A stretch of DNA of 32,000 nt from Candidatus Thorarchaeota archaeon (GCA_048882505.1 JBHLRO010000001.1:1-32000), one strand, 5' to 3'; shown: positions 9,510 through 30,003, numbered from the stretch's first letter. The notes: a model not told the origin generated them from the letters alone. Translations and numbers: made by a program.

Positions 9510-11195
9510 ATGAATCAATACAGTTCGTTTTTAAAGCCATCGGATTTATCGTTGGTTGTCGGTAGGCAAGAACATCAAAGCCGCTTTGAAACACTTCTTA
9601 CACGATTTATCGCTGGTGACCTAGAGCGGAATCTTATAATTATATCTGGTTCTCCGGGGATGGGTAAATCCACTCTGCTTGGCCTTTATCGTAAGATTGC
9701 AGGACAAAAGAAAATAGCCTATATCCAACCTACAATAAGAATGGGCGAAAAGAGCCAAGATTTATTCCGAGAGATATACAAGGCGCTATCGCCCAATCTA
9801 GAACCTGAAAAGAAGGCATTTTTAAAAAAAGCCAAAGAAATACAAATAGGCTTTGTCGTTTCCAACCAGACTTCTTCTGATATAACTTCAGGCTTTCTTA
9901 ATAATTTGCAGGTGCGACCCCCCGCAAGGCCAATCATAATTGCCTTTGATCCAGTTGATCGGATTCTAGACACAAACAATTACATTTTTGAGGTTTTGAA
10001 AGATCTAATTAAATCCCTTCGGGGGAAATTTCCGCTCTTCTTCATTGTTGTCGTACAAAAGTACAATTCGTATCGTATTAAAGAATTCCTTCGAATGGGA
10101 GAACATATCACAGTAGATAGTCTTAACTTCGATGATTCCAAATTTTTGCTTTCCAAACTATCATATGGACCCCCACGAACTAGTGAACATCTAATTGAAG
10201 TTTTTTTAAAAAGATCTGATCGCTCTCCTTTTAATTTGGTTTTTATTTCTGAAGTAATAGCTTGGGTTAAAGAAAAAATCAAGATCGAAGGATTGGATGA
10301 AAAAGAGGCTCTGATTAATGAACTAGCCCAACCTTTCGTTAAAAACTTCGCCCTTCGTGCTTTCATCCAAGAAATCTTTGATATTTCCAAGGATGAAGAC
10401 AAAGCTATTCAAATAATGCTGAACTCTCCTCAAAATGCAGTGAATAGGGAATCCCTAATCCCGATGATTTCTAAAAAAACCCTAGAAAAACTATTGAAGA
10501 AAGCGTTAGTGATAAGTCAAGGCGATTATTACCAATTTTCCAGTTATGCACTATATCATTTTCTGGGATTGGGAACCAGAGTAGTAAATCGTACTACTGA
10601 AATCGAACTCTTGCTTAAGGTCCTTGAGGACGATATAAGGCAGGAATTTGCTATCAACCCAACCGTACTCGAAAGACTTGAACAAATTGCTCTAACAACA
10701 GCTTATCTCGAGGACTCCTCTATTCCTGTCCGGGCTAAAACGTTGTATGATATTGCTATTGATCAAAAGAAGTACTATACGGCCTTCAGACTAGCTCTGT
10801 TGATAGGAAATCTATTTCGTATTGCAAAAGATGGATATGGAAGTGGTCATTTTCTAGAAGAGTGCGCCCAGAATTTATATTTTCTTGATAAGGTTCAGTA
10901 CGCGACAATTTTATTTGACAGGGCATTGGAAGCTTATCGTTTTGCTGATCGAAAAAAGGAGTTCCTTGAAATTGCGCAAAAATCAGCCTCGGTTTACCTA
11001 AAGCAAGCGGAACAGTATAAAGACAAAAATCAAATTGGGCTTGCACGCGCATCGTTCTATCATTCCATTCAGCTTTTCAGACAAGCTAATGATTATGATT
11101 CTGCTAGAGAGGCAGGTAATAAGGTTATTCAAACATATGAAAAGTCTGTTCATCAAAAATACTTTAAAAAACTATTACCATCCATTAAACTATAG
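9510..11195 (+). CDS. P-loop NTPase (AAA+/STAND-like, archaeal ATPase type) with probable winged helix and C-terminal TPR/SNAP-like helical repeats
   Basis: VVGRQE, Walker A GSPGMGKS (9648-9671), Walker-B-like IIIAFDPVD (9933-9959), Ala/Tyr-rich helical repeats at the C-terminus. ATG at 9510 follows GAGGA (the track starts at TTG 9495). Confidence 0.75.
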   Translation: MNQYSSFLKPSDLSLVVGRQEHQSRFETLLTRFIAGDLERNLIIISGSPGMGKSTLLGLYRKIAGQKKIAYIQPTIRMGEKSQDLFREIYKALSPNLEPEKKAFLKKAKEIQIGFVVSNQTSSDITSGFLNNLQVRPPARPIIIAFDPVDRILDTNNYIFEVLKDLIKSLRGKFPLFFIVVVQKYNSYRIKEFLRMGEHITVDSLNFDDSKFLLSKLSYGPPRTSEHLIEVFLKRSDRSPFNLVFISEVIAWVKEKIKIEGLDEKEALINELAQPFVKNFALRAFIQEIFDISKDEDKAIQIMLNSPQNAVNRESLIPMISKKTLEKLLKKALVISQGDYYQFSSYALYHFLGLGTRVVNRTTEIELLLKVLEDDIRQEFAINPTVLERLEQIALTTAYLEDSSIPVRAKTLYDIAIDQKKYYTAFRLALLIGNLFRIAKDGYGSGHFLEECAQNLYFLDKVQYATILFDRALEAYRFADRKKEFLEIAQKSASVYLKQAEQYKDKNQIGLARASFYHSIQLFRQANDYDSAREAGNKVIQTYEKSVHQKYFKKLLPSIKL

Positions 11196-11241
11196 ACCAG
11201 AATAAAATATGTGCTTAATAAATAAATAAAGGTGTATAAAT

Positions 11242-13398
11242 TTGAAAGCGGAACCAAGAATAAAGTTGGGTCAAATTCAAGATCATAAAACGAAAATTGA
11301 ATCGGACAGGTCACAACTTCAAAAACGGATTCAAAAGTTTCAAGAAGAAGGAAACAAAGCATCTGAAGCCTTTACCAGAACTTTAGATCATTCAAAGACG
11401 AAGATATTATCAGAGATTAGAACGTTAAAGGAAGTTATTGATCAATTAACTGATAGTCTCGAAGATTATAAAAAGAAGTCTCTAGAGTCTGATAAAACCG
11501 CTTTAAACGAACGATTGGATAATCTTGTTGGGGAAATAGCATCAGGAGTGGGAGAACTCAAGAACGAACTAAACGTATTATCCAAAGAGTATGAAGATGA
11601 TATTTCAACGATATATTCAGAAATACCAAGTAAGTTCAACAATGGGCTAGTTGAGATCCAAGCTAATCAAAGAGATCGGATAAATCAATTTGAGGAAAAC
11701 ATGTTTTCCCATATAGAAGGAATGAAGAAGGAAATATTGAGTTTAGTCGATAAAGAGGACACTTGGCAAAGAGGTGTATCATCAAGTCTAATCTCTTCAA
11801 CTCATGATGCCTTGGTTGAATTCCAGCAAAAAATTCGATCTCTTGCGGACTCTAAAATACATGAATTGAATGAGACATTTTCTGAAACAAACGCCGATTC
11901 AAGCAGAGGAATAGGTATAGCCAAAGAAGGTCTCAAAGCGGAATTAAACAGCGCCGCGAATAGGTTAAATCATACTATAGAGAATCAGAAAGCAAATAAT
12001 ATAGAGCTCCAGTCTACCTTTAGAGGTCATCTGGATGAATCAAGATCAAACTTGAGAAAAACTGTTGAGAAAATCCGCATTCAAACTATGGAGGATTGGA
12101 GTTCAAGGCGAACGGAACAATTGGAAAAGTTGAATGCGATTCAGGATTCCACCTTGAAACAATATGAAGAGGACCTTGCTGTAAATGAACAATTCCAAGA
12201 CAAATTATTGTCAGAATTAGAACACCAAATGCGATCGGAACTTTACACAAGACTTGATAGTGTCTCGCTGACTTTCACACAATTTCAGGATTCGTTCGTT
12301 GAGAAAGTAAATGATCTAATTTCTCGTCTAGCAGCTTTTCGGGATGAGACCAAAGAGAATGTCGATGTTCTTTTGACAAGCAATCTCAAGGCAATTGGTG
12401 AAATCGGTAGGCAAACCGAAGAATACCTTCCAGAGGTATTTACAAGAGTATCAGAAGAATATGATATAAGTAGAAAAAAAACGCTAACAAGCTTAACCAA
12501 GACCGTGAAAGAACGTTACGGTGCTATTAATGATTATGTTGATCGATTTGAAACTATCATCGATGCAAGAATAGAAAAACTGGTCGCTGATCTTGATAAT
12601 TATTTGGTGGAATTAAACAAAGTAACTGGACAATATTCAACTGATACAATTAACAAGAATGGCTTGGCCCTGGATCAGTTCAAAAAGGAAATGATGGAAT
12701 CTTTCAACTCTATTGAAGCAGGTCAGAATAAGAATTTCCAAAAATCTGTTCAGGGTTTGCAGAATATACTTCAATTAAAACAAGAAGAACTGATAAATGA
12801 AATCAGTTCCCTAGTGTCTATGACCGAAGAATATACAGAAACTCAAAGTTCGGTTATCGACGAAAAGAGAGATGAAATTTCTCGCAGAAGTGATGTTAAA
12901 CTTACTGATCTTAAGAAGGAAATAAAGACATTAGAAAATGATGAAAAGAATTTAATTAGGGACATCATAGAAAGATACCACCAAGAGCTCGATGAGAACG
13001 TGAAAGCAATCAGCGAAAACGTTAAAGTTCTAGTTGACAACCTAGGGGATGAACCCAAGAGTAGAGTGTTTGAATTCCGATCTAGGGCTAGTCAGGATTT
13101 TAATCATAGACAAAAAATGATTGACGATTATATGAATACCTTAAATGAACGATTTATTAAATTCTTTGATGATCAACTTTATACACTTGATCATTTCATT
13201 AGTGATAGCCGATCCAAAAGAAAAACGATTGATCTTATACGAGAGAGTCTTGATGAGAAGATAGAAGAGGTCAGCGGCCATATTGATTCAGCCACCGCGA
13301 CGCTTCATGATAATTTCCTTATCAATTCCCAAACCATTGTTACTTCTGCAAACCAAGTAGTTACTTCGATAGAAGAACTAATCAAATCCTTAAGATGA
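11242..13398 (+). CDS. 718-aa soluble all-alpha coiled-coil/amphipathic helical protein (apolipoprotein-like 11-residue periodicity), function unknown
   Basis: E/K/L/S/D-rich, no Cys seen, about 4 Pro, no signal peptide or TM segment; TTG start preceded by AAGGTG. Confidence 0.8.
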   Translation: MKAEPRIKLGQIQDHKTKIESDRSQLQKRIQKFQEEGNKASEAFTRTLDHSKTKILSEIRTLKEVIDQLTDSLEDYKKKSLESDKTALNERLDNLVGEIASGVGELKNELNVLSKEYEDDISTIYSEIPSKFNNGLVEIQANQRDRINQFEENMFSHIEGMKKEILSLVDKEDTWQRGVSSSLISSTHDALVEFQQKIRSLADSKIHELNETFSETNADSSRGIGIAKEGLKAELNSAANRLNHTIENQKANNIELQSTFRGHLDESRSNLRKTVEKIRIQTMEDWSSRRTEQLEKLNAIQDSTLKQYEEDLAVNEQFQDKLLSELEHQMRSELYTRLDSVSLTFTQFQDSFVEKVNDLISRLAAFRDETKENVDVLLTSNLKAIGEIGRQTEEYLPEVFTRVSEEYDISRKKTLTSLTKTVKERYGAINDYVDRFETIIDARIEKLVADLDNYLVELNKVTGQYSTDTINKNGLALDQFKKEMMESFNSIEAGQNKNFQKSVQGLQNILQLKQEELINEISSLVSMTEEYTETQSSVIDEKRDEISRRSDVKLTDLKKEIKTLENDEKNLIRDIIERYHQELDENVKAISENVKVLVDNLGDEPKSRVFEFRSRASQDFNHRQKMIDDYMNTLNERFIKFFDDQLYTLDHFISDSRSKRKTIDLIRESLDEKIEEVSGHIDSATATLHDNFLINSQTIVTSANQVVTSIEELIKSLR

Positions 13399-14120: not shown

Positions 14121-17100
14121 ATGAAGAGTAAGGGAAGTTTCGAGATGTCTAAGTCTAAAAAGATCGTTTTGACTTTATTCTTCACCATTTATTTCCTGCA
14201 TGTTCTCGCAGTAGTCATCCCCATTCAGGAAGAGGGCTTTCTCAATTCCAATGAATTTACAGCTGGATTTTTGAGGGGATTTGGACTATCAGGGGAAAAA
14301 AGGGGGGATCGCATCGTACCGCGTCTGTCCCGCTCTTCGAATGGCGAGGCTACAAGGGCGTCTTCAGGAGTTCATTTCAAACCCTCCTCGTATTTTATTC
14401 CAGGTTGGGCGGACACTCGCTTTGGTTCTAGGAAGAATATAACGATTAATGCTGCTAAGGTAAGTGCAGATCTAACGAATTTTCCTGTTTTGATCGACTT
14501 GTATGATCCAGATTTACAAAATAACGCCCAAGCTAGCGGAAATGATATCTTTTTCACTGATTCGACGGGCTACACCTTGTATCACGAGATCGAGCTTTAC
14601 GACCGAGTCTACAATTCAACCCATGCTCATTTGGTTGCTTGGGTAAGAACAAACCTTACAGCTTCCCAGAACACTCTTATTTCTATGTATTACGATAATC
14701 CAACTGCAGTGAATCGAGTAAATCCAAAGAGTGTATGGGATGATCAATATGTTGGCGTCTGGCATCTCAAGGAAGATCCTTCAGCTTCATCACCACAGAT
14801 AAAGGATAGTACCTCCTATGGAAATGATGGAGTCGCTCAAGGAGGACTAAATACCAGTGGTCAAATTTCAGCAAAGATGGATGGGGGAATGGATTTTTGG
14901 GGAAGTCAAAACATAAATCTTGGAAATGATCAAAGTTTGGATATAACACAGGAGCTAACTGTTGATCTATGGGTTAATCTCGATATTGATGCTAGTACAG
15001 GATCTTGGCCCCCCATCATAGGTAAGGGTGATGGGGACAGTTTTAATGGATGGATGCTTTTTCAACTTGAGCAGTCCCACACATTAAAATTTGTTTATAA
15101 AAACAGTACCAGTCCTAATTGGATTTTAAGTACGGGAGAACCATCTACGCTTCAATTGGATACTTGGCATCATATTGTCGTTACGTTCAGCGTTTCTCAG
15201 GGAGTAGCACGTCTATACATTGATGGTTCGGTTTTTGATACTTCATTTAATATTGCGGAAATCCTCAGCAGCAGTGATAGTCTGTTTTTTTCGAAAAACA
15301 CGTTTAGCTTCGATGGGAGTCTTGATGAAGTACGTATCTCGAAAGTCGCGCGTTCGGCCGACTGGATTACGACTCAATATAATAATCAATATGACCCTTC
15401 GAGCTTTTATTCCTTAGGAATTGAGCAAAACAGGCCAACATTCAAATCCTGGCCTTTTCCATCAATGCGTTACAGGAAAAACGTGACAATTGATTCCGGA
15501 AGGATAAGTAGTGATCTTACAAACTTTCCATTTTTGTTGAACTTGTCTGATAGTGATCTACATGATAAACAGGAAGTTCAGATAGATGGAGGGGATATCC
15601 TATTTGCAGATAGTTCTGGTGTCCAATTAGACCATGAGATAGAGTTCTTTGACAAGAATTACAATACATCCCATGCCCAACTGGTGGTCTGGATACGCGT
15701 GCCATTTCTCTCAAGTTCTACTGATACCGTGATATCGATGTATTTTGGCAATCCTACAATTGAGAATCAAGAAAACCCTGCTGGAGTCTGGGATGCAAGT
15801 TATTTAAGCGTTTGGCATTTTGATGAGGAAGGCAATGGATCGCGATATGATTCAACCAGCAATAATAACGACGGAACACCTTTCAATTACGAAGGGGATG
15901 AAGCAGTTTTGGGCAAAATCGGAGGTTCTGATAAGCTCGACGGTATTGATGATTATATCGAAGTTAATAAAAGCGGCTCCATCAAAGGCCTATCACAAGT
16001 CACCTTTGAAGGGTGGATAAATATAGGTGATCTTAGCGGAAGTAGTCAGAACATCTATATAGAAACGATTCAAAATACCATTGATACTCGTTTTATTGTA
16101 CATATTTCAACTTCTAACAGTCTTAGGTTTGCGGGACGTGCGCCTGATTCTGATTCGGTCACATTATGGGGTTTTGTGGCAACAATTTCTACAAGTACAT
16201 GGTACCATATCGTTGCGATCTTTGACTCGCTTAATGACATTCAATACTTATATCTCAATGGGGTGGAATACAGTACTGCGCTGAGTGAACCTTCCATAGA
16301 TAATGGGGATCCGTTGAAACCTCCGTCTATAGGAGGATTAGAGGGAGCTGATTTATTTAATGGAACGATTGATGAATTTAGAGTCTCTGCCACTGCAAGA
16401 AATCTTGATTGGATTACCACCGAATATGATAATCAGAACAATCCAACAACCTTTTACACTGTAGGCCCGTTAAAGACGCCCTCTCCAGTCGGAAATTGGG
16501 CATTTCCATGGTTATCTTACAAAAAAGACTTAACGATCAATTCGAATGCTATAAGTGGAACCTTGGACAATTTCCCTCTCCTGGTACGTTTGGATGATAC
16601 TGATTTGGCCTCCTCGAGTATAGTTCAGGATGATGGAGATGATATTGCTTTTGCAGATGATCTGGGAAACAGATTGGATCATGAGATTGAATTTTTTGAT
16701 AAAACCCATAATTCATCATACGCTAGATTAGTGGCTTGGGTCCGAATACCGTATTTATCGAACATAACTGAAACCACGATATCGATGTATTATGGAAGTT
16801 TACTCACGGGCCCTCAGGAGAATCCTGCAGGAGTTTGGGATTCCAATTTTAAAGGGATTTGGCACCTGAATGAAATCTCAAGCATAGGGCCTCCACAGAT
16901 TCGGGATAGCACTGACTATTCGAATGATGGGTATACATACGGATCAATGAACGTAGGTAGCCAAATGGAGGGACAGATAGACGGAAGCTTAAAATTTGAC
17001 GGCGTTAATGACTTTATAAATTGTACTAATTCGACCTCATTGAATATGGGATCCGGTGATTTCACTTTTGCCATGTGGTTTAAGAGCTCAACCTCAGGTG

Positions 17101-20100
17101 CCACGACTCGATTAGGGGGGAAAGGAGCAACTGCTTTTGGGGGCAAGCGTTATAGCTTGGAACTGAGGGATACAGGCAGCGTGAAAGGTGAAATTGATGA
17201 TGACTTCACGAAAGTTGAAGTTACCAGTTCTGGCACAAATTATAACGATGGAAACTGGCATTATGTAGTTCTAGTAAGAGACGGAAACAATTTACGTTTA
17301 TATTTAGACGGAACGGAGGATCCAAATTCTCCCGCTGATATTACAGGTATTGGTGGCTTGGACGATTCAAACGCGTTTTATATTGGTACCCAATACGATA
17401 ATGTCATTCTAGATGTATTCCAATTCTTTAATGGTTCAATTGATGAAGTGTCTATATCAAATACGTCCCGCTCCGCAGACTGGATCCTTTCACGTTGGAC
17501 CAATCACGTCAGTTCAGATAGTTTTTATATTGTAAGGAATCTAGAAAAGAATCCTTTCATAGATGATTGGGCCTATCCTTGGCTTCAATATCGGAAATAT
17601 ATTCAGGTCGATTCAACTAAAATCAGTGGCAGGATGTATGACTTTCCTCTCCTAATCAATATTTCTGATGTTGATCTCCATGACAGTAATAAGGTTCAAA
17701 TTGACGGTAGTGATATTGCATTTGGGGATACGAACGGTATGAGAATCCCTCATGAAATTGAGTATTTTTCTCAAGCAGGTAACGGGACCCACGCCTATTT
17801 GGTTGCCTGGGCAAAGGTTCCTCTCCTCTCCATGAGTACCGCTAACTATATCCTGATGTATTACGGCAATACCGCCGTTTATAACCAGGAAAATGGTACA
17901 GGCGTTTGGAATTCAAATTATGCCGGAGTTTGGCATCTTGGCGATGACCCCTCTCCTTATTATATTGATAGCACGGCGAATAATAATCATGGCGTTGCTC
18001 TAAATTCTCCTCTCAACGATACTTCATCTAAGATTGATGGTGGAGTTTCATTTGATGATTCAAATGACCGTGGGATAAATATTTCTCACTCTTCTTCACT
18101 GGCGATTTCAACAAATATTATGGTTTCTACCTGGATTAAAACAACAGATTCAGATGCAGACGTTGGTGTTGTTGTAAACAAGTGGGGAAATCCAATTGGT
18201 GAGCGGAATTATTGGCTCGGTAAGTTGAACGCCCAAGTATTTGCCTTCTACGTAGATGATAACTATAGTGTACAATACGATCTCTCCAGATTTAATGATG
18301 GCGAATGGCACTATATCGTTTGCACCGCTGCAGATAACGGTATTCTAATAATGTATCTTGATGGGATTCCAGTGAACTCTACTTCATGGGATGGAATATC
18401 TACAACGGGCACAAATGATTTACACATTGGGAAACCTGTTGAAACCACGTTTCAAGAGTTTAATGGCGACGTTGATGAGGTACGGATATCTAAGATTGTA
18501 CGATCCAGAGAATGGGTGAGAACTGAGTACATCAATCAACTGGACCCCAGCAGCTTTTATACTCTTGGAACTGAAGAGGAATCATTACAGTGGTGGGACG
18601 CATCATATTCAATGAGAATGGATATTGGAATAGACAATTCAAAAGTCTCTGGGAACCTTTTCGAATTCCCGCTACTTGTAAATATCACAGATAGCAATCT
18701 AAAATCGGGGAACATACAGGCTGATGCCAGTGACCTATTGTTCACCGAATGGAAAGGGAACAAGCTTAACCACGAAGTGGAATTCTTCAGTCAAGATAGT
18801 ATCGAAGGGCATTTAATTGCATGGGTACAATTGCCAACATTGTCTAATTCCCAATACAACCTAATATCAATGTACTTCAACAATCCGGATCTTCCTGATC
18901 AAGCGAATCCCACAGGAGTGTGGGATACTTATTTCAAAGGAGTATGGCACCTTTCAGAGGATCCTTCGATATCACAAATGAAAGATAGCACGTTCTACAA
19001 TAATGATGGAACTACTTCCAATTTGGCTTCTGATGATCAAGAAAGCGGCCAGATAGATGGCAGCCTTGATTTTGACAATGTTAATGATCAGGTCAATTTT
19101 GGCGACAAATCTTCTCTCAACATGGGTTCAGGTGATTTTTCACTGTCATTGTGGTTTAACTATGATGGAGTTGACAAAGGACCTCTAGCTGGAAAGGGAT
19201 CTTATGGATCGAATGGTATACGATACTATATTGCGGTGGATACAACAGCGGGACTCATAAAAGGTGAAATTGACGATAATGGGGGTTCGGGAAAAAAGAA
19301 TATAACTTCTACTTCAACTTATGCCGATAATTTATGGCATCATGCGGTTCTGGTTAGAGACGGAGCAAATCTACGATTTTACATCGACGGCTCAGAGATC
19401 TCAAGTTCTCCTGTAGATATTACGGGTTATGGTAGTCTTGATCTGGCATTACCGTTTTACATGAATACGTTAGCGAGTGATACTGGCGGAACTCTCAGTG
19501 ATTGGTCTAGTTCCAAACTCGATGAAGTTCGCGTATCCAACCTCGCACGTTCGGGGAATTGGATCTCAGCATCTTATTCAAATCAGCGAAACGCGTCAAG
19601 TTTCTACGTTATCAGTTCAGTTCTATCTTATGACTTAAGCCCTCCCGTAATAAATGATTTTGGAGTAGACGATCTAGGTATAGGAACGGGGATATTCTGG
19701 GCCGATGTTAGTGATGAAGGTTCAAACATCGTGACAGTAGATGTTAGGATCAATGGCAGCGACTTTTCAATGAGTTTCAACGGTACCCATTGGATCTATC
19801 AGCAGCTAGTTATCCTTGGCGCGCTTTACGAGATCCAAATTTTCAATGCTTCTGATAGTAAAGGAAATTATCTTTTTGCTCCCTCAAACCTAAAACAAAT
19901 TTACTTTACAAACGATTTTATAGCTCCCACGGTTGACGATTGGGATTATTTCGATAATATAGGCCCCTATGGAACTTTTCGTGCAAATGTCTCCGATTCA
20001 TGGGGAACGATTGATACAGTTTTGGTAAATGTAACTATGCTGAATAGTGTGCCGCGAAATGATCTTTGGGCAGTCATGGTGAGTAACGGAACAAGTTATG

Positions 20101-23100
20101 TGAATGACACAATTAGCATGCCAAAAGGCTCAGTTTTTTGGTATGTTGTAACGGTCAACGATACTGCGGGCAACCCAGTTACTACCTCTCCTGTACCGGC
20201 CGTTATTCCAGATATTAACCATGCTCCCGAGGCACAAAACCTGGCCCTTTCGCGGGATAACTCTCTCATTCTATTGCCAATCCTTAGTAATTCGACATTA
20301 TATCTCCATTATGATTTTTACGATGCGGATAATGATAGCGAGGGTGGTACGGAAATTCGCTGGTATAAAAACGGAGTTCTACAAAGTCCCTACAATGATT
20401 TGAAGCAGATAAGCAATACAAGCGCCTTAATAAAAGGAGATGTTTGGAATGCCACGGTAAGACCCAAAGATGGACAAGATTTTGGGAACCTAGAGATCGC
20501 AGCTAATATAACAATCCAAAACACTCCACCTGTTGTCCAAAGTGTTATTATCCCGACAAGCATATCGATAGATAATCTTACGCTATCTAATGTTACCATA
20601 GATGAGGATAGTGATTCAATTCTTTTCTATGAAACTAAATGGTATCGTAATTCGACTTATTTATCAAACTTTGATAATCTCATTCTAATCACATTCAACA
20701 ATACGAAGAAAGGCGAAACATGGTTTTGCGAAATTCGAGCTTATGATGGGACGAATTATTCGCAATGGGTATCCTCAAATACTATTACAATTGATAACAC
20801 GCCTCCATCTGCATCCGATTTAGTCCTTTCTCCATTGAATCCAAATACAAGCAGTTTACTCACCGCAAGCTGGACTTTTGCGGATGCCGATAATGATAGC
20901 GAGTCCAATTATTATATTCAGTGGTATCGTTGGGATACTCTTCAATCAGTGTATGATAATCTAATAAACTTGCCTTCTACCGCAACAGCGAAGAATCAAG
21001 AGTGGTATTTCAAATTAATAGTGAATGACGGGGAAGGCAACTCAACAACATACTCCTCACCAAAGGTAATAATTCAAAATACTCCTCCCGCAGCCTCAAA
21101 TCTGATCATTACCGTAGATCCTTTCACCTCTACTCCCTTATCTTCCAGCTGGACTTTTAATGATGCGGACGGAGATAGCCAGCCGAGTAATAGTTGGATT
21201 ATCTTTTGGTATAAGAATAACATCTTACAATCCCAATACGATAATTTGACCACCATACCTGCCAGTGGGACAACTAAAGGAGAAGTTTGGAATTACACCT
21301 TGAAAGTGTTCGACGGGACAAATTATTCCATACAGTATAATTCCTCTATTAGCATCATTAAGAACTCCATCCCAATAGCTTCAGGCTTGACTATTACATT
21401 AAGTCCGACTACAACGGAAAACATAACAGCTGGTTGGAATTATGATGATGATGACAATGATCCTCAAAATACAAACTGGATTATTTATTGGTATAAAGAT
21501 AATTCATTGATGACTTCTTATACTAATCAGACCGAGGTACCAGCCAGTGCTACGATTAAAGGAGAGGTCTGGAATTATACATTGAAAGTCTTCGATGGAG
21601 AAGCTTATTCTATAACCTACAACTCAAGTATTTCACTAATAGTTAACACAGCTCCTTCAGTAATAAATCCAACATTTAATAAAACCAGTGGCGTTACCAC
21701 AGGCGACTCAATTAATGTGACATATGGTTATTTTGATCCAGATAATGATTTGGAAGTCACAACTGAAAGAGTGGTGTATTGGTATCAAAATAGCATCTAT
21801 CGCGTGGACAAAGAAAATCAGACGATCCTATATGATTCCGAAACAACATCAGGTGAATATTGGCAATATCAAATTAGAGTTTATGACGGTGTTGAATGGA
21901 GCCAAAACTTTACCTCAACCTTAGTGGTAATTGGAAATGCCCCAAATAACATCCCCGAAATCCAGAATATAACTTTTACAGGGAATGAAAACACAACATT
22001 AGATGATTTGATTCTTAGTTACGATTATTTCGATCTCGATGGGCATTTACAGAGCAATAGAGAGATCTTTTGGTTTAAGAATGGAGTAATTCAAGCTGCA
22101 TTAAACGGTTCGACCATTATCGATTCGAGTCTTACCAAGAAGGGTGAGATCTGGAATTGCACAATCAGGGTATATGATGGGCTTAATTGGTCACTTCTAT
22201 ACAATGCCAATCAAATTACAATCCAAAATGCCATGCCAACGACTACCGACATTAGTAACACCATAGATCCCACAACTGATCAGGATCTGATTGCGGGATG
22301 GACATATTTCGATGCAGATAACGATCCACAAAACAGCAGTTGGATTGTACGTTGGTATAAGAATGGGCAGCTGCAGACGCTGTTAAATGATTCCGCAATA
22401 ATAAAATCAGGTAATACAACCAGAGGAGAAACCTGGAATTTCACATTAAGAGTTTTTGACGGAACGGATTATTCTATTCAATATAATTCCTCTCTAATTC
22501 AGATTTTCAATTCACCTCCATCAATAGCTAGTCCCTCCTTTAACAAAACCGTTGGGGTTACTTCAGACCATTCCATTGAAATCTCTTATAGTTTTAATGA
22601 TATCGATGGCGACTCAGAAGATGTTAGCTATAGAATTGTTTACTGGTATAAAGATACTATCTACCAAGCTTTAAAACTGAATCATTCGATTTTGTTCTGG
22701 CAGGATACAGTTGAAGGAGAAGTTTGGTATTATATGGTAAGAGTATTCGATGGTACAGCCTATAGTGTGAATTTTACTTCGACTCCGGTTTCAATCGGAG
22801 CCTCCACCAATGATCCGCCAATAGCTGAAAATCTGTCTCTTACCCTCAATCCTACAACGCTGGACAATTTAATTGCATTTTATGACTATTTTGACAATCA
22901 AAGTCACCCTGAGGCTGGATCATTGATTCGCTGGTATCAGAATGGCCAATTACAGAGTCATCTTAATGATACAAAATTAATACCTTCAAGTGAAACCAGT
23001 AAGGGCGATATTTGGTATTTTACCCTCCGTCCAAAGGATGGCCGAGATTATGGACTTCTTGTAACTTCATTCAATGTTACAATCTTGAATTCAAAACCAA

Positions 23101-25136
23101 CGGCATCGAGCTTAAGTCTTAATCCCTCTCCTAGCACAATTGATGATTTAACTGCAACCTGGCTGTACAACGATGCGGATAATGACATCGAGGACAATAA
23201 TTGGATCATCGGATGGTATCGAAATAATCAGCTACAGGCTGCTTATAACAATTTGAAAACAATTCCATCTATGATTACCTCAAAAGGGGATTCCTGGAGA
23301 TTTACCTTACGAGTATTCGATGGAGAAAATTATTCAATTCAATATAATTCCTCATCAATGATTATATTAAATACAATTCCGATAATAACAGAATATAGTT
23401 ATGGCTTCGACCCAAATAACAGTCATGTAGATCCAGATATAAGAACGTCCTTAACAAATCAGATCTTCTTTATAGACGATGAAGATTTATCAATCTACTA
23501 TAAATTCGAAGACCCAGACTTTCCGATTGACCAAGATAAGTCGTTAATTCAATGGTATTATCAGCTTGAGTCTGGAACGTGGATTGAGATTTTGGCCTAT
23601 CAAAATTCAACTTCTATACCTCATTCGGAAACCTATCCAGGAGATCGCTGGAAATGTGTTATTACTCCATTTGATGGAACAGATATTGGAACTGGAACTG
23701 CACTCCCAGAATTAGTAGTCGAAAGCCGACCCAAGATTATTGATTTTATCATAACACCACTCGTTGAGGATCAAGAAGGAAGCTATTATTATGACGAGGG
23801 TATGTACAACCTGACGATCGTTGCCACCAATCTTATCCCGATTGATGGCATCGCAATCACTCTGAATGATAGTCTTGGAGTTTTATACCATGCTAGTAAA
23901 GCCGCAAACAATGACTCTGTTTGGATGTTAATATACCAATTACCCAAAGAAGATTTCACGACGAAATATCTCGAAACCAAACTAAGTGTAGAGATCAAGG
24001 CAAGCAGTGTCGTCACTTACAACTCTAGAGACTTCAGTATCTATGCCCTTTATATGGACTCATTTGTTGTAGAGGATCGCTCTCCCCCCCGAGTTGAGGG
24101 AATGCCACGATTTGAGTTTAATGATGAACTAAATCCCACCAATATAACATTTTATACCGATATTGTTGATTACGGGTCTGAAATAGCAGAGGTTGTATTA
24201 TACTATTATTTCCAAGAGTTCAATTCTTCAGGGGGCACGGGTTCAGCCATAGGGCAGAATTGGCGATCTACAAAAATGTCTAAGGTCGGCGAAAATGGAG
24301 ATATCATCAAATATGCGGTCACAGTTAGGTTTGATCACAATCAAACGTCACGCGAAATAATTTACTATATCGAGACAATGGACTCACTAGGAAATAGAGG
24401 TATAGCGTATAATATTAACAATGATCCGGAGAGGATCGACGAAACTCGATTTACATATTCTCCACCAGGGATCGATCCAACATTTGTACTAATAATAATC
24501 GGGATAACAATCATTTCCGCCATCTTTGGTTCAATTGTGTATGTCAAATTCATAAGAAAGCCTGAGATCGTTGGTCTCGACAAAGAACTAGTGCTAGGTT
24601 CATGCTCAGATGTTGATGAAACTGAAATAAGGAATTCCTGGGATGAACATACCGTTGGAATTGTGGTTTCTTTCTTTGATCAACGACATGGCCCGATCCC
24701 AATAATTGTTGAGCCTGCAATTCTGAACGATAATTTTAGAAAACTTGTTGATCTATCTGATCGATCTTTCAGCAGCACGGGATTTTGTGACGAATTCAGT
24801 CGGGAAATCTCTTCGAGCTACGACTTTGTATTAAGTCACGGGGCTCGGATTAAATCGATGACTTTTGGTTTTGCCCTAAACAGACCCAATTCGCGTGGAA
24901 AACAAGAAGACCTTACGTTAAATGTTTTAATTCATCAGGAATTATTCCCATTGGTCAATCAATTTCTGGATGAAATTCAGGCGAAAGTACATATTCTCCA
25001 TATCAAAATGGATGAAAACCCAGAAGACAAGGACGAAATCAGAAGAATGATTATTCATGTTCGAAAATATGTTTCCCAAATCGTTTTATCCTATGAAAAG
25101 ATATATGGAACAACAGAGTTGATAAAGGAAGAATAA
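14121..25136 (+). CDS. 3671-aa single-pass type I membrane receptor/adhesin: signal peptide, 5 DUF2341+LamG modules, 12 Ig/cadherin-like repeats plus further beta domains, TM helix (24483-24545), cytoplasmic longin/uDENN-like domain
   Basis: N-terminal KSKKIVLTLFFTIYFLHVLAVV; modules start near 14406, 15450, 16497, 17568 and 18591; repeats 20215-23720; TM FVLIIIGITIISAIFGSIVYV followed by KFIRK (positive-inside); tail GIVVSFFDQRHGPIPII ... FGFALNRPNSRGKQEDLTLNVLI. Confidence 0.93.
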   Translation: MKSKGSFEMSKSKKIVLTLFFTIYFLHVLAVVIPIQEEGFLNSNEFTAGFLRGFGLSGEKRGDRIVPRLSRSSNGEATRASSGVHFKPSSYFIPGWADTRFGSRKNITINAAKVSADLTNFPVLIDLYDPDLQNNAQASGNDIFFTDSTGYTLYHEIELYDRVYNSTHAHLVAWVRTNLTASQNTLISMYYDNPTAVNRVNPKSVWDDQYVGVWHLKEDPSASSPQIKDSTSYGNDGVAQGGLNTSGQISAKMDGGMDFWGSQNINLGNDQSLDITQELTVDLWVNLDIDASTGSWPPIIGKGDGDSFNGWMLFQLEQSHTLKFVYKNSTSPNWILSTGEPSTLQLDTWHHIVVTFSVSQGVARLYIDGSVFDTSFNIAEILSSSDSLFFSKNTFSFDGSLDEVRISKVARSADWITTQYNNQYDPSSFYSLGIEQNRPTFKSWPFPSMRYRKNVTIDSGRISSDLTNFPFLLNLSDSDLHDKQEVQIDGGDILFADSSGVQLDHEIEFFDKNYNTSHAQLVVWIRVPFLSSSTDTVISMYFGNPTIENQENPAGVWDASYLSVWHFDEEGNGSRYDSTSNNNDGTPFNYEGDEAVLGKIGGSDKLDGIDDYIEVNKSGSIKGLSQVTFEGWINIGDLSGSSQNIYIETIQNTIDTRFIVHISTSNSLRFAGRAPDSDSVTLWGFVATISTSTWYHIVAIFDSLNDIQYLYLNGVEYSTALSEPSIDNGDPLKPPSIGGLEGADLFNGTIDEFRVSATARNLDWITTEYDNQNNPTTFYTVGPLKTPSPVGNWAFPWLSYKKDLTINSNAISGTLDNFPLLVRLDDTDLASSSIVQDDGDDIAFADDLGNRLDHEIEFFDKTHNSSYARLVAWVRIPYLSNITETTISMYYGSLLTGPQENPAGVWDSNFKGIWHLNEISSIGPPQIRDSTDYSNDGYTYGSMNVGSQMEGQIDGSLKFDGVNDFINCTNSTSLNMGSGDFTFAMWFKSSTSGATTRLGGKGATAFGGKRYSLELRDTGSVKGEIDDDFTKVEVTSSGTNYNDGNWHYVVLVRDGNNLRLYLDGTEDPNSPADITGIGGLDDSNAFYIGTQYDNVILDVFQFFNGSIDEVSISNTSRSADWILSRWTNHVSSDSFYIVRNLEKNPFIDDWAYPWLQYRKYIQVDSTKISGRMYDFPLLINISDVDLHDSNKVQIDGSDIAFGDTNGMRIPHEIEYFSQAGNGTHAYLVAWAKVPLLSMSTANYILMYYGNTAVYNQENGTGVWNSNYAGVWHLGDDPSPYYIDSTANNNHGVALNSPLNDTSSKIDGGVSFDDSNDRGINISHSSSLAISTNIMVSTWIKTTDSDADVGVVVNKWGNPIGERNYWLGKLNAQVFAFYVDDNYSVQYDLSRFNDGEWHYIVCTAADNGILIMYLDGIPVNSTSWDGISTTGTNDLHIGKPVETTFQEFNGDVDEVRISKIVRSREWVRTEYINQLDPSSFYTLGTEEESLQWWDASYSMRMDIGIDNSKVSGNLFEFPLLVNITDSNLKSGNIQADASDLLFTEWKGNKLNHEVEFFSQDSIEGHLIAWVQLPTLSNSQYNLISMYFNNPDLPDQANPTGVWDTYFKGVWHLSEDPSISQMKDSTFYNNDGTTSNLASDDQESGQIDGSLDFDNVNDQVNFGDKSSLNMGSGDFSLSLWFNYDGVDKGPLAGKGSYGSNGIRYYIAVDTTAGLIKGEIDDNGGSGKKNITSTSTYADNLWHHAVLVRDGANLRFYIDGSEISSSPVDITGYGSLDLALPFYMNTLASDTGGTLSDWSSSKLDEVRVSNLARSGNWISASYSNQRNASSFYVISSVLSYDLSPPVINDFGVDDLGIGTGIFWADVSDEGSNIVTVDVRINGSDFSMSFNGTHWIYQQLVILGALYEIQIFNASDSKGNYLFAPSNLKQIYFTNDFIAPTVDDWDYFDNIGPYGTFRANVSDSWGTIDTVLVNVTMLNSVPRNDLWAVMVSNGTSYVNDTISMPKGSVFWYVVTVNDTAGNPVTTSPVPAVIPDINHAPEAQNLALSRDNSLILLPILSNSTLYLHYDFYDADNDSEGGTEIRWYKNGVLQSPYNDLKQISNTSALIKGDVWNATVRPKDGQDFGNLEIAANITIQNTPPVVQSVIIPTSISIDNLTLSNVTIDEDSDSILFYETKWYRNSTYLSNFDNLILITFNNTKKGETWFCEIRAYDGTNYSQWVSSNTITIDNTPPSASDLVLSPLNPNTSSLLTASWTFADADNDSESNYYIQWYRWDTLQSVYDNLINLPSTATAKNQEWYFKLIVNDGEGNSTTYSSPKVIIQNTPPAASNLIITVDPFTSTPLSSSWTFNDADGDSQPSNSWIIFWYKNNILQSQYDNLTTIPASGTTKGEVWNYTLKVFDGTNYSIQYNSSISIIKNSIPIASGLTITLSPTTTENITAGWNYDDDDNDPQNTNWIIYWYKDNSLMTSYTNQTEVPASATIKGEVWNYTLKVFDGEAYSITYNSSISLIVNTAPSVINPTFNKTSGVTTGDSINVTYGYFDPDNDLEVTTERVVYWYQNSIYRVDKENQTILYDSETTSGEYWQYQIRVYDGVEWSQNFTSTLVVIGNAPNNIPEIQNITFTGNENTTLDDLILSYDYFDLDGHLQSNREIFWFKNGVIQAALNGSTIIDSSLTKKGEIWNCTIRVYDGLNWSLLYNANQITIQNAMPTTTDISNTIDPTTDQDLIAGWTYFDADNDPQNSSWIVRWYKNGQLQTLLNDSAIIKSGNTTRGETWNFTLRVFDGTDYSIQYNSSLIQIFNSPPSIASPSFNKTVGVTSDHSIEISYSFNDIDGDSEDVSYRIVYWYKDTIYQALKLNHSILFWQDTVEGEVWYYMVRVFDGTAYSVNFTSTPVSIGASTNDPPIAENLSLTLNPTTLDNLIAFYDYFDNQSHPEAGSLIRWYQNGQLQSHLNDTKLIPSSETSKGDIWYFTLRPKDGRDYGLLVTSFNVTILNSKPTASSLSLNPSPSTIDDLTATWLYNDADNDIEDNNWIIGWYRNNQLQAAYNNLKTIPSMITSKGDSWRFTLRVFDGENYSIQYNSSSMIILNTIPIITEYSYGFDPNNSHVDPDIRTSLTNQIFFIDDEDLSIYYKFEDPDFPIDQDKSLIQWYYQLESGTWIEILAYQNSTSIPHSETYPGDRWKCVITPFDGTDIGTGTALPELVVESRPKIIDFIITPLVEDQEGSYYYDEGMYNLTIVATNLIPIDGIAITLNDSLGVLYHASKAANNDSVWMLIYQLPKEDFTTKYLETKLSVEIKASSVVTYNSRDFSIYALYMDSFVVEDRSPPRVEGMPRFEFNDELNPTNITFYTDIVDYGSEIAEVVLYYYFQEFNSSGGTGSAIGQNWRSTKMSKVGENGDIIKYAVTVRFDHNQTSREIIYYIETMDSLGNRGIAYNINNDPERIDETRFTYSPPGIDPTFVLIIIGITIISAIFGSIVYVKFIRKPEIVGLDKELVLGSCSDVDETEIRNSWDEHTVGIVVSFFDQRHGPIPIIVEPAILNDNFRKLVDLSDRSFSSTGFCDEFSREISSSYDFVLSHGARIKSMTFGFALNRPNSRGKQEDLTLNVLIHQELFPLVNQFLDEIQAKVHILHIKMDENPEDKDEIRRMIIHVRKYVSQIVLSYEKIYGTTELIKEE
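14400..19635 (+). repeat. Five tandem DUF2341+LamG modules (~1020-1070 nt each)
   Basis: Same motif series five times (RKNITI/RKNVTI/KKDLTI/RKYIQV/RMDIGI; (N/D/E)FP; HE(I/V)E; AW(V/A)/VWI; VWH(L/F); W(H/Y)(H/Y); DE(V/F)(R/S)(I/V)S). Confidence 0.85.
14457..14495 (+). repeat. 39-bp exact inverted repeat, copy 2 (partner at 6427..6465)
   Basis: Base-by-base identity with the reverse complement of 6427..6465. Confidence 0.95.
20215..23720 (+). repeat. Twelve tandem ~95-aa Ig/cadherin-like repeats with acidic DxDxD loops
   Basis: Starts NHAP, NTPP, NTPP, NTPP, NSIP, NTAP, NNIP, NAMP, NSPP, NDPP, NSKP, NTIP; loops DADNDSE, DADGDSQ, DPDNDLE, DIDGDSE; core KG(E/D)xW...V(F/Y)DG..YS. Confidence 0.85.
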
Positions 25137-25192: not shown

Positions 25193-26095
25193 GTGACTTC
25201 ACAACCTCCCACACAAAAAGTCCTTTTCATGGGGCTCGGGGCATCAGGGAAAAGTAGTATTCGTGCCGTAGCTTTTGAAGGAAAATCGCCCATCGATGTA
25301 ACAGACTATCGGGCGACTATCAACTATACGCGTTCATCGAAACACATTATTGACAGTGCATTTCAAATCTTTGACTGTGGCGGCCAAGAATCATTTATCT
25401 CAGCCTTCGTAGGAGAACAAGCGGAGTTTATATTCTCAGATGTCGATCTTCTAATCTGGGTTGTGGATGTATCCGACTTTGATCAAGTTTCAACATCCAA
25501 ATTTTATTTCGACCAAGCTGTTAGACGCCTAGATGAATACTCCCCTCGGGCAGAAATCTTTTGTTTCTTCCATAAAATAGACCTGATTCTTTTAAACATG
25601 AAAGAACAAATACTGGAAACTATGAAATCATATTTTGTTCCTAATCGAGGAAATTTCGTGGTTCATTATAAAGGGACTTCTATCTTTGACCAAAGTATCT
25701 ATTCCGCTGTCGGGGAAATTGTACAAGGCATTATTCGAAAAAACACTAAAGCAAAAACAGTAAGTGAAGCAATCCAAGAATTTGTTGAAGCAAATAAAGA
25801 ACTATCCGGGATTGCCGTTTATACAGAGGAGGGATTGCCAGTTTTTGAAGAAGGAGATTTAGCCAATCTGATAGTTGTTCCCGCAAACCTATTGTTAACA
25901 AGCCTAGACCGTCTTGTAACTGAGTTTAGATCTGATACGTTTAAAACCACCATGGAAACAAACGACTATCTTTTTATCTTTCAGAGAATTAAATCAGAGC
26001 TTCTACTTACGGGTGTCGCTCATAAAATTGCTCCTCTTCAATACATGATGGTGAAGATGGATCAGTTGGCTGGACTTGTAGAGGATTTGCTATAG
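25193..26095 (+). CDS. Rag/Gtr1-like small GTPase with C-terminal roadblock domain (paralog 1)
   Basis: G1 GLGASGKS, G2 RATIN, G3 DCGGQ, G4 HKID, G5 TSIFD match the RagA/Gtr1 pattern (GxSGSGKS, GATID, WDCGGQ, HKMD, TSIWD); the tail (SGIAVYTEEGLPV) fits a roadblock fold; GTG start. Confidence 0.9.
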   Translation: MTSQPPTQKVLFMGLGASGKSSIRAVAFEGKSPIDVTDYRATINYTRSSKHIIDSAFQIFDCGGQESFISAFVGEQAEFIFSDVDLLIWVVDVSDFDQVSTSKFYFDQAVRRLDEYSPRAEIFCFFHKIDLILLNMKEQILETMKSYFVPNRGNFVVHYKGTSIFDQSIYSAVGEIVQGIIRKNTKAKTVSEAIQEFVEANKELSGIAVYTEEGLPVFEEGDLANLIVVPANLLLTSLDRLVTEFRSDTFKTTMETNDYLFIFQRIKSELLLTGVAHKIAPLQYMMVKMDQLAGLVEDLL

Positions 26096-27990: not shown

Positions 27991-28060
27991 ACTAAAGATA
28001 CAAGAAATCAACATAAATAGTCCAGAAGTTATTCAATCAACGAAATGAAAATCGACGGTA

Positions 28061-29092
28061 CTGGAGGATGCCACGATCGAAAAAACCACTGATGGCCTGG
28101 TCGTAACCATTTTTGAGGATATTGGACCAACTAACATATACAATTCATCTCCTCTTAACGAAGATGAAGCATTAAACATGGCATTTAGATTGCTGACTGC
28201 GATGGGATCCGATTTTCCCGAACAGAATGAGATTAGATCGTATGGTCCTTTACCAACTCCCAAGGAACCACTTTTAACGCTAGGATTTTGCCTCACTTTA
28301 AAGCCTGGCAATACTGTTGATCAACGTATCGCCCAGTTTGGAAGGATTATTGTTTTTTGGATTATTACTCGATCCTATAGCATTATGCGTTACGTTGGGG
28401 TTATTAAAAAGTTACTAGAGAGAAGTTTACAGATATATGGTATCCAAACAGATACCGATCTTGACACAGAGACTATGAAGAAGATTGACGAGAGGATTCA
28501 GATCATAGATACTCGAATTGAAAGTTACTATGTCTCGCCCCGTGGGAAGGTGGAACCAATGTCTCATATCTCCCTAATATCCGCTGATGCTCCCATAATA
28601 CTCGTGGATCACTCTAACAAGCAAATAAAAGCGCTTATTAGAAAAGAATATACCCCTGGGCAGAAAAGTAAGGTTTTGCAAAGTATTAATGATTTCAAAC
28701 AGGAATTCAAACAAGGGATCATGTTCAAAGTCGAGATGATTAGTGAGCCATTCGAAATCCAGAGAGTCTTAACCAAATTTGGAATTGAAGCCCCATCTCA
28801 GAACGGGATTCATTTTAGAATTAAGTTAGATGATAGTTTGATTACCTTTGAAGATCTGGATGCTTTTTTTGAACAGAAATTGACTCCTCGCCGTCAGGAT
28901 GTTGTCAAGTTTGCCTTGAAATCTCTTCAAAACCGACGTGAAATAAGCATTGATGCATTATCCCGTCAGTCTGGATTGACTCCTGAATTGTTAATGCATT
29001 TATTCCTGGACGCAAAAGAAGCAGGATTGCTTCCCCAGATAACGATTGAGAATAATCTTGTATTTCTTAAGACCGCTGGTGATGATGACTAA
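28061..29092 (+). CDS. Longin/uDENN-like domain + possible gelsolin-like domain + C-terminal winged helix; start uncertain, upstream of the track's ATG at 28178
   Basis: The frame is open from 28049. The extension encodes GLVVTIFEDIGPTNIYN, homologous to GIVVSFFDQRHGPIPII of the receptor tail. C-terminal EISIDALSRQSGLTPELL..LF.DA...G is wHTH-like. Confidence 0.72.
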   Translation: MEDATIEKTTDGLVVTIFEDIGPTNIYNSSPLNEDEALNMAFRLLTAMGSDFPEQNEIRSYGPLPTPKEPLLTLGFCLTLKPGNTVDQRIAQFGRIIVFWIITRSYSIMRYVGVIKKLLERSLQIYGIQTDTDLDTETMKKIDERIQIIDTRIESYYVSPRGKVEPMSHISLISADAPIILVDHSNKQIKALIRKEYTPGQKSKVLQSINDFKQEFKQGIMFKVEMISEPFEIQRVLTKFGIEAPSQNGIHFRIKLDDSLITFEDLDAFFEQKLTPRRQDVVKFALKSLQNRREISIDALSRQSGLTPELLMHLFLDAKEAGLLPQITIENNLVFLKTAGDDD

Positions 29093-29097
29093 CCAAG

Positions 29098-30003
29098 CTA
29101 TAATAGATCAGTTATAACCGCTGCAAATTGGTCTATTTTTGCCATCAAAAATTGAATAGGTACCGTTTTTTCTGCTATTCCCGCAATGAGTAAATTTTCT
29201 TTTCCTTTAATTACTTGAGAGATTAAAAGATAGTTATTGGTTTCCAGAGCTGTTTTGTAGGTATCTGACATATTAAATTCTCTACGCAGCCTGTTCTTGT
29301 TGGAAAGCCATAAATTAGCAGGTAAAACGATTTTTTGGCTTAAAAAGCCTTCTTCTAGAACTGGCAATCCTTCCTCCGTATATAAGGCCATTCCAGAGAT
29401 TTCAGTATTGGTGTTAACGAAATTTTGTATTGCCTCTGAAACGGTTTTTACCGTACCTGACTGTATAATAAGTTTACGGATTATTTCGCCCATAACGTGA
29501 TAAACAGATTCAGTGAAAATTGAAGTAGAAAAATAGTAAACCTCAAAATCACTGGCCGCATTGAAATACCTTTTCATTGTGGCCTCTACTTTACCAACCA
29601 TCTCTGGTAAGAGTAGGTCGATCTTGTGAAATAAACAAAAAATAATGGATTCAGGAGAATATTCAATGAGCCGATTTACGGCGTGATCGAAGTAAAATTT
29701 GGAAGTTGAGATTTGATCGGGATCCCCTACATCTACTACCCAACACAGTATTTTTACATTAGTAAACATAAATTCTGCTTGGTCACCTATGAAAGCTGAA
29801 ATAAAGTTCTCCTGGCCGCCACAGTCAAAAATTTGAATTGCAGCATCAATGATTGTCTTTGCAGATCTGAAATAATTTATGGTTGCATCATAGTTCTTGA
29901 CTTCTTCGGGCGATTTTCCTTCAAACACAACTGAACGAATCGAACTCTTCCCACTAGCTCCAAGACCCATGAATAGTATTTTGTGAGGCGCTTGGGAATA
30001 CAT
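29098..30003 (-). CDS. Rag/Gtr1-like small GTPase with C-terminal roadblock domain (paralog 2)
   Basis: GLGASGKS, DATIN, DCGGQ, HKID, TSIFT; aligns end to end with 25193..26095 (over half identical by eye). Confidence 0.9.
   Translation of the reverse strand: MYSQAPHKILFMGLGASGKSSIRSVVFEGKSPEEVKNYDATINYFRSAKTIIDAAIQIFDCGGQENFISAFIGDQAEFMFTNVKILCWVVDVGDPDQISTSKFYFDHAVNRLIEYSPESIIFCLFHKIDLLLPEMVGKVEATMKRYFNAASDFEVYYFSTSIFTESVYHVMGEIIRKLIIQSGTVKTVSEAIQNFVNTNTEISGMALYTEEGLPVLEEGFLSQKIVLPANLWLSNKNRLRREFNMSDTYKTALETNNYLLISQVIKGKENLLIAGIAEKTVPIQFLMAKIDQFAAVITDLL

Follow-up and report, generated by a model that had tools for sequence, protein, structure and literature searches.

The longin tail of a giant surface protein

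We analysed a 32,000-nucleotide stretch of DNA from a Candidatus Thorarchaeota archaeon (GCA_048882505.1, JBHLRO010000001.1:1-32000), here called the window, with positions counted from its first letter. It contains a gene for a giant, receptor-like surface protein that ends in a short cytoplasmic tail and is followed on the same strand by a gene for a Rag-like GTPase. The tail very probably forms a membrane-tethered longin domain of the folliculin (FLCN)/SMCR8/NPRL2 class; its fold, the invariant Gly-Pro turn (GP motif) after its first strand, the invariant Arg3592, and a recurring link between tail genes and Rag genes are shown here. A reading made from the sequence alone had gone further and taken Arg3592 for the catalytic arginine finger of a GTPase-activating protein (GAP). 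As far as computation goes, this sequence-only reading is supported, every computable prediction having held, because the arginine is invariant, the structural neighbours of the tail are GAP-type longins, the arginine sits in the β4-β5 loop, and in a modelled complex it faces the nucleotide pocket. The features of the gene are as follows.

14121..25136, + strand: giant surface-protein gene (P0001), one open reading frame (ORF) of 3671 codons/amino acids, from the ORF list and translation
14241..24482, + strand: ectodomain, residues 41-3454; DUF2341/LamG modules, then many repeats of ~95 amino acids
24483..24554, + strand: transmembrane helix, residues 3455-3478; hydrophobic, with RK directly after it (positive-inside)
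24555..25133, + strand: cytoplasmic tail, residues 3479-3671 (193 amino acids); two juxtamembrane helices, FLCN/SMCR8/NPRL2-type longin domain, C-terminal helices
24690..24695, + strand: Gly3524-Pro3525, the GP motif at the β1-β2 turn; Gly in 106 of 106 tails, Pro in 104 of 106
24858..24932, + strand: MTFGFALNRPNSRGKQEDLTLNVLI, the segment flagged from the sequence, residues 3580-3604; end of β4, Arg loop (RPNSRGK), β5
24894..24896, + strand: Arg3592 (CGT), candidate arginine finger; R114 in tail numbering
25062..25064, + strand: Arg3648, an arginine in the last tail helix that is invariant in 106 of 106 tails; outside the modelled interface

The protein begins with an N-terminal signal or anchor (residues 1-40), continues as an ectodomain of ~3400 amino acids, crosses the membrane in one transmembrane helix, and ends in the tail. 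Pfam recognizes five Laminin_G_3 domains (9.6e-84) and five DUF2341 domains (8.7e-39), all within the first 1700 residues. The ectodomain carries 87 N-x-S/T sequons, compared with 52.5 ± 6.4 in shuffled sequences, while the tail has none; this distribution fits an ectodomain outside and a tail inside the cell, and we infer a single-pass topology of that orientation. Strong conservation among paralogues marks the juxtamembrane stretch (24555-24650; consensus KFIRKPELVGLDKELV), whose two helices precede the longin core; this stretch may couple the transmembrane helix to the longin dimer.

Fold, conservation and the candidate arginine finger

AlphaFold2 (AF2) prediction of the tail was performed on an alignment of 106 tails (A1; 24-66% identity) and gave a pLDDT of 92.7 and a pTM of 0.88. 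In tail numbering, two helices are followed by strands at 33-42 and 46-53, a helix at 55-75, strands at 85-92, 98-109, and 117-127, and three further helices. The resulting β-β-α-β-β-β-α topology is that of a longin, with the GP turn between strands 1 and 2; this is where the sequence-only reading had placed GIVVSFFDQRHGP, which begins at residue 3513, as the first strand plus GP turn, and the turn is conserved in the 106 tails. Translation also returned the flagged segment as residues 3580-3604 and the Arg3592 codon at 24894-24896, exactly as proposed. R114 falls in loop 110-116, between strand 4 (98-109) and strand 5 (117-127), so that its predicted position in the longin β4-β5 loop is reproduced, and its correspondence to FLCN R164 and SMCR8 R147 holds at the level of the loop. 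The arginine of the corresponding β4-β5 loop in NPRL2 is R78. For SMCR8, the location given in the sequence-only reading is borne out by the literature, which places Arg147 in the βL4-βL5 loop and equates it with FLCN Arg164 (bioRxiv 10.1101/2020.04.16.045708).

The structural neighbours of the tail are GAP-type longins. Foldseek against the PDB returned longins of FLCN-FNIP2, GATOR1, and the SEA complex together with a Lokiarchaeota longin, at TM scores of 0.36-0.58. In the VIA-align re-alignment, the top 20 chains comprised FLCN, FNIP/Lst4, SMCR8, C9orf72, NPRL2/3, and DENN longins (Z 8.3-13.2), including the Lokiarchaeota longin 8yqg (Z 13.2), Lst4 (11.4), the FLCN chains 6nzd_H (11.2) and 8dhb_J (10.9), the C9orf72-SMCR8-WDR41 chain 6lt0_C (11.1), GATOR1 chains (9.5-10.8), and DENND1B (8.6); the longins of adaptor (AP5), TRAPP, and SNARE (Ykt6) proteins and sedlin reached 7.5 or less, compared with 9.3-11.4 for the FLCN, Lst4, SMCR8/C9orf72, and GATOR1 chains. 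The Swiss-Prot matches in the AlphaFold DB were DENND6, SMCR8, LST7, AVL9, C9orf72, NPRL2, and LST4, and two of the top six AlphaFold DB cluster representatives are named 'Folliculin/SMCR8 longin domain-containing protein' (TM 0.60-0.62). A test for a DENN domain found none, the protein ending ~65 residues past β5 with helices only. LOV/PAS domains, which had the top Foldseek E-values, were rejected as relatives, since they superpose at TM 0.28-0.35 with an rmsd of 10-35 Å and drop below the longins after re-alignment.

A phmmer search run exhaustively against 1.8 billion representative proteins identified 145 relatives of the tail, and in nearly all of them the match lies at the C-terminus of a long protein. 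Five positions are invariant in A1 (n = 106; tail numbering), namely F41, G46, P49, R114 (= Arg3592), and R170, and a further nine (P47, Q43, D69, F72, S73, F77, P111, E118, and N119) are conserved in at least 90% of the tails. GP and RG are both retained in eight distant relatives that belong to other Asgard families. Loss of Arg3592 among homologues had been named as one of the observations that would overturn the arginine-finger proposal; the residue is instead retained in 106 of 106 tails and in eight of eight distant relatives. The family motif around it reads P-x-A-R-G-G-x-E-N. The solved Lokiarchaeota longin 8yqg has no arginine at this position (HMMER alignment), and the arginine is thus not a general longin feature. 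Taken together, we consider it very likely that the tail is an FLCN-class longin bearing the hallmarks of a GAP.

The direct peptide comparison with FLCN is a different matter. The sequence-only reading had aligned the flagged segment without gaps to a FLCN peptide, and every letter of that peptide agrees with residues 152-176 of the folliculin chain 6ulg_L (579 residues), in which the arginine is at 164. The two share F, R, G, and Q, and the flanking strands are present in the AF2 model; the match as such does not stand out. Its BLOSUM62 score is 10, rank 16 of 3647 windows in the 3671-residue protein, and because 15 other 25-residue windows score as well or better (best, 24), the 25-residue match alone is no more than chance and is not evidence by itself. 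The equivalent columns of other family members score higher against the FLCN peptide (mean 15.8, maximum 41); a phmmer search of the PDB with the most FLCN-like relative (P0119) finds no FLCN, SMCR8, or NPRL2 chain. Of the 106 tails, 29 match Pfam Folliculin (PF11704) below threshold, with a best E of 1.9e-4, while the family next in frequency is matched by five; four of six distant relatives score 15.5-21.7 bits on PF11704, compared with a curated cut-off of 23.3. By sequence this signal appears weak but consistent, and it stays below the Pfam level for membership.

The chance-level alignment bears on the proposal that the likeness to the FLCN loop is a coincidence, in which case the arginine would be structural or would bind a lipid or other ligand in a domain unrelated to GTPase control. 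Such a proposal also accommodates a tail without a Pfam or PDB sequence match and the appearance of LOV/PAS domains in the Foldseek list. Those LOV/PAS matches, however, fall below the longins on re-alignment, and five observations agree against coincidence: the invariance of the arginine, the GP motif, the Rag neighbourhood, the fusions of such longins to Rag GTPases, and the enrichment of conserved residues at the modelled interface (see below). We therefore regard coincidence as highly improbable.

Rag-like GTPases and the modelled complex

Two Rag-like GTPase genes lie downstream of the receptor gene.

25193..26095, + strand: Rag1, a 300-residue Gtr1/RagA-family GTPase with a C-terminal roadblock-type half; PF04670 at 7.2e-39, 134 bits against a cut-off of 22
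29098..30003, - strand: Rag2, a Gtr1/RagA-family GTPase of 301 residues; PF04670 at 7.4e-37, 60% identical to Rag1 (tblastn)

Rag1 starts 56 nucleotides past the receptor stop codon on the same strand. The P-loop GxxxxGKS, T42, DCGGQ, and HKxD motifs of Rag1 are invariant in its homologues, some of which are named Roadblock/LC7/MglB in some sources. Across 201 genomes of the phylum, searches with A1 located the tail domain in 65, including all nine other genomes of the source genus, and searches with PF04670 located Rag-family genes in 132. On comparing the coordinate lists by hand, we found at least 40 cases, in several Asgard families, of a tail and a Rag gene within ~10 kb on one contig; this hand count is a lower bound, as it covers 150 of the 843 Rag matches. 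The spacing is ~200 nucleotides at G086:C52, ~190 at G154:C54, ~185 at G193:C2, ~170 at G080:C185, ~450 at G025:C4, and ~60 at G171:C54, while at G190:C188 the two genes form a divergent pair at the 5' end of the receptor gene and at G190:C28 and G136:C9 the Rag gene lies immediately upstream. Three neighbourhoods were verified by ORF calling and Pfam. In each, the tail and its Rag neighbour are kept and the ectodomains vary, with Big_13 Ig-like domains in two and DUF2341/LamG/CBM56 in one.

The relatives that lie farthest from the tail (E 1e-9 to 1e-13 to A1) have ~460-480 residues and join the same longin, bearing GP and A-R-G, directly to a Gtr1/RagA GTPase. Such fusions occur in other Asgard families and gave PF04670 matches of 2e-24 and 2e-26.

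L012:8164-9555, L013:6954-8333, L017:6018-7460(-), L018:6797-8161, L016:6655-7515: longin-Gtr1/RagA fusions with a C-terminal extension

These fusions, in which the candidate GAP and its client would share one chain, provide independent evidence that longins of this type are functionally linked to Rag. Liu et al. (bioRxiv 10.1101/2020.10.19.343400) had already recorded longin-Rag fusions, as well as NPRL2-like longins, in Asgard archaea. In the cultured Asgard archaeon MK-D1, GTPase and longin genes do not as a rule share operons, and this makes regulators difficult to match (Tran et al. 2024); the source lineage is an exception to this pattern.

A complex of two tails (on A1) with Rag1 residues 1-188 (alignment A3, 61 homologues), GTP, and Mg was then modelled. 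The score was 0.81 in all three runs, while the best of three controls scored 0.00; in a calibration made without ligands or user alignments, 58 of 80 solved complexes attained this mark, as did 2 of 110 mismatched pairs. Contact agreement among the runs was at least 96%, and the pLDDT of the partner was 88. The interface of the first tail copy comprises residues 41-47 (GP loop), 65, 68-69, 72-73, and 76-77 (helix 1), 114-117 (Arg loop), and 119, and that of Rag1 comprises 15-17 (P-loop), 38-49 (switch I around T42), and 65-68 (switch II, from the Gln of DCGGQ). Modelled R114 contacts A17 of the P-loop (expected error 1.6 Å) and A41 of switch I (1.5 Å); G46 contacts Rag1 Q65, and the GP loop as a whole contacts Q65-F68 and the P-loop. 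The second tail copy touches Rag1 through its own GP loop. Of the 19 conserved tail positions, 10 lie among the 19 interface residues of the tail (hypergeometric p 3.6e-7). The sequence-only reading would have been undermined by an arginine pointing away from the GTPase site; the model instead turns both the Arg loop and the GP loop towards the P-loop, switch I, and switch II. Structures of comparable complexes have already been solved for FLCN-RagC, GATOR1-RagA, and SMCR8-ARF1 (8DHB, 7T3B, 7MGE), so the model shows likeness to a longin-GAP/GTPase pair and not binding by this particular copy. That the tail associates with a Rag-like GTPase we nevertheless judge to be likely.

Association need not mean catalysis. 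Many longin and roadblock dimers serve as scaffolds or guanine nucleotide exchange factors (GEFs), as in Ragulator, TRAPP, Mon1-Ccz1, and DENN, and the tail might likewise bind the Rag-like GTPase to act as a membrane anchor, a scaffold, a GEF, or a platform for effectors, its arginine serving binding or recognition of the nucleotide state. The gene neighbourhood and the modelled interface both speak for association and are silent on hydrolysis, DENND1B, a Rab GEF, is among the structural matches (Z 8.6), and longin/roadblock platforms are mostly GEFs or scaffolds (PMC10933270). On the other hand, the combination of a GP motif with a β4-β5 arginine has been reported only in GAP-type longins (PMC12290439), and in the model the arginine contacts the P-loop and switch I with GTP present. 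Binding without GAP activity is, on this evidence, unlikely.

Several observations weigh against GAP action on the neighbouring Rag. At the level of sequence, FLCN, SMCR8, and NPRL2 chains were absent from PDB searches by phmmer with the tail and by hmmsearch with profiles A1 and A2; apart from designed helical proteins, 8yqg alone was recovered (profile match, E 0.015); Pfam assigned no family to the tail at E 1 or better; and homology of the tail to folliculin is not established by these HMMER searches. The copy in the window reads P-N-S-R-G-K-Q-E-D, with the arginine and the next glycine intact and three loop positions off consensus (S for A, K for G, and D for N). The pass of the complex model may reflect remembered geometry of the solved complexes, and a homodimer was modelled, while eukaryotic longin GAPs act as heterodimers. 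The source genome encodes ten copies of the tail, each at the C-terminus of a giant ORF; these ORFs range from 823 to 10,069 codons, and contig ends truncate some of them. A Rag gene is found within 3 kb of only three of the ten, so that several receptors may converge on few Rag proteins. One of the paralogue loci is G000:C10:95196-125403, and one of the ten has an open frame of 10,069 codons. Finally, three genomes of family f19 carry RG-bearing longins and have no PF04670 match at E 1e-8 or better, and Rag therefore need not be the only or universal target. Longins of this kind in f19 include the following, and one f19 genome is 100% complete.

L011:6529-7269, L010:6037-6738(-): GP/RG longin with an ArsR/TrmB-type winged helix, ~247 amino acids

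These f19 genomes, together with the seven of ten tail genes in the source genome that lack a Rag neighbour, could indicate that the tail is a GAP-type longin for another small GTPase (Arf-like, Rab-like, or other) and not for the neighbouring Rag. SMCR8-C9orf72, which is equally close in fold, does act on Arf and Rab. This assignment is countered by the adjacency of Rag genes to tail genes in many genomes of several families, by the fusion of the equivalent longin type to Gtr1/RagA GTPases, and by a Rag1 complex model that passes its controls, and we hold it to be decidedly unlikely. GAP action of the tail on the co-encoded Rag-like GTPase through Arg3592 is, with the modelled complex included, the reading that we favour with some confidence. 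In the corresponding mechanism, the tail, which is tethered to the membrane and is probably a dimer, would dock on the nucleotide pocket of GTP-bound Rag1 (perhaps also of Rag2), where Arg3592 would be inserted beside the γ-phosphate as an arginine finger. GTP hydrolysis by the Rag-like GTPase would thereby be accelerated, and events at the ectodomain could be coupled to the nucleotide state of the Rag switch.

The region downstream of Rag1 encodes a further longin.

28049..29092, + strand: soluble protein of ~347 amino acids with longin, gelsolin-like, and winged-helix domains; AF2 pLDDT 79.3

The gene is single-copy in the genome, lies 2.9 kb downstream of the receptor gene, and converges on the Rag2 gene. 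AF2 places the longin at residues 14-129, the gelsolin-like domain at 155-257, and the winged helix at 276-341. VIA-align gave Z 11.4 to 8yqg and 10.9 to the FLCN chain 8dhb_J for this protein, and the gelsolin-like domain matched domains of villin, adseverin, and gelsolin and Thorarchaeota ProGel at Z 8.3-8.9. In hhalign, the broader profile A2 aligned with its first four strands (P0267; E 1.5e-4), and A1 gave no match (probability 0.3%). Across the family of this protein GP is invariant, as are two arginines, R93 and R99, that lie in and after its own β4-β5 loop. The protein may serve as a second longin subunit. The annotated start, ATG 28178, cuts off the conserved first strands with the GP turn. 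The frame is open from 28049, with no ATG/GTG/TTG start upstream of the conserved strands, and ATG 28045 lies one base out of frame, before an A-run. Because homologues are 337-352 amino acids long, compared with 304 as called from ATG 28178, the anomaly reflects either an assembly indel or an unusual start.

Elsewhere in the window, positions 1-6801 (- strand) encode a second giant DUF2341/LamG protein, transcribed divergently, whose C-terminus lies beyond the contig end. Just upstream of the receptor gene, 9495-13398 encodes a STAND-type AAA_16 ATPase (566 amino acids) and an apolipoprotein-like coiled-coil protein of 718 amino acids.

Relation to known longin GAPs and biological meaning

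In eukaryotes, FLCN with FNIP1/2, and its yeast counterpart Lst7-Lst4, is the GAP for RagC/D-Gtr2 (PDB 6NZD, 6ULG, 8DHB), NPRL2-NPRL3 (GATOR1/SEACIT) is the GAP for RagA/Gtr1 (6CES, 7T3B, 9O5D), and SMCR8-C9orf72 (the CSW complex) is an Arf/Rab GAP (6LT0, 7MGE, 7O2W). The tail has in common with folliculin the longin fold (Z 10.1-11.2, rmsd 2.7-3.3 Å over 135-143 residues), the GP turn after β1, R-G in the β4-β5 loop (A-R-G in the tail-family consensus, S-R-G in this copy), and a partner GTPase of the Gtr1/RagA family, which for the tail is predicted. It differs in sequence, with ~12-14% identity and no HMMER-level match, and in architecture, since folliculin is soluble whereas the tail is the C-terminal end of a 3671-residue transmembrane surface protein and lacks the zinc-binding N-terminal extension and the DENN domain of FLCN. 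Yeast Lst7 is also without a DENN domain, and this longin-only protein is more exactly the closest eukaryotic counterpart. SMCR8-C9orf72 and NPRL2-NPRL3 belong to the same longin class (Z 8.3-11.1), with the catalytic arginine in the corresponding loop (R147 in SMCR8). In both, the pocket is built from two longins, and in the modelled complex both tail copies likewise contact the GTPase. The eukaryotic complexes are heteromeric and soluble or recruited to lysosomes, whereas the tail is covalently tethered to the membrane, and its partner may be a second tail or the soluble longin of 28049-29092.

The best structural match of all is archaeal, the longin of the Lokiarchaeota Roadblock-Longin protein (8YQG; Z 13.2, rmsd 3.0 Å over 141 residues), which is dimeric but, having no arginine at the Arg3592 position, is not of the arginine-finger type. 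Asgard 'Folliculin/SMCR8 longin domain-containing' proteins with a GP motif and an arginine finger have been described (Traffic 2025, PMC12290439) and have the domain class, both motifs, and the phylum in common with the tail, and AlphaFold DB representatives bearing this name match its fold best (TM 0.60-0.62); the same study regards the GP motif as specific to GAP-type longins and asks whether ArfR or Rag GTPases are the clients. The domain type and both motifs are thus already in print for Asgard archaea. As far as the published text shows, those longins stand alone or are fused to GTPase or two-component proteins, whereas the tails are carried on giant LamG/Ig-like surface proteins. The placement as a receptor tail, the expansion of paralogous receptors, and the recurrent Rag neighbourhood were described in no paper that we found, in a literature search of incomplete coverage that took in few subscription journals. 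What is new is the receptor fusion together with the conserved Rag neighbourhood.

In eukaryotes, amino-acid sensing upstream of mTORC1 has Rag GTPases and their longin-type GAPs (FLCN-FNIP, GATOR1) at its core, and we know of no eukaryotic counterpart in which an arginine-finger longin is wired to a surface receptor. From gene order, Asgard GTPases were found not to be matchable to their regulators (Tran et al. 2024). The window offers a concrete pair of regulator and GTPase, in which a 193-residue tail and a 300-residue Rag-like GTPase are encoded 56 nucleotides apart and a single arginine is named. If the GAP activity is true, the arginine-finger mechanism of longins is older than eukaryotes, as is its pairing with Rag, and the mechanism is here wired directly to a surface receptor. 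A wider proposal, which we put forward tentatively and would not yet back, is that the locus encodes a complete prokaryotic transmembrane route: a variable giant lectin/Ig-like ectodomain might sense a surface cue (a glycan or cell contact) and, through dimerisation of the tail, control a GAP of the folliculin type, tethered to the membrane, which in turn determines the nucleotide state of a Rag-like pair; the eukaryotic FLCN/GATOR1-Rag axis might then have begun in Asgard archaea as a surface-receptor pathway that later moved to the lysosome. Since an FLCN-like tail that keeps the key arginine stands 56 bases upstream of a Rag-like gene, the FLCN-type/Rag switch of nutrient signalling probably predates eukaryotes, and it is here found on a surface receptor.

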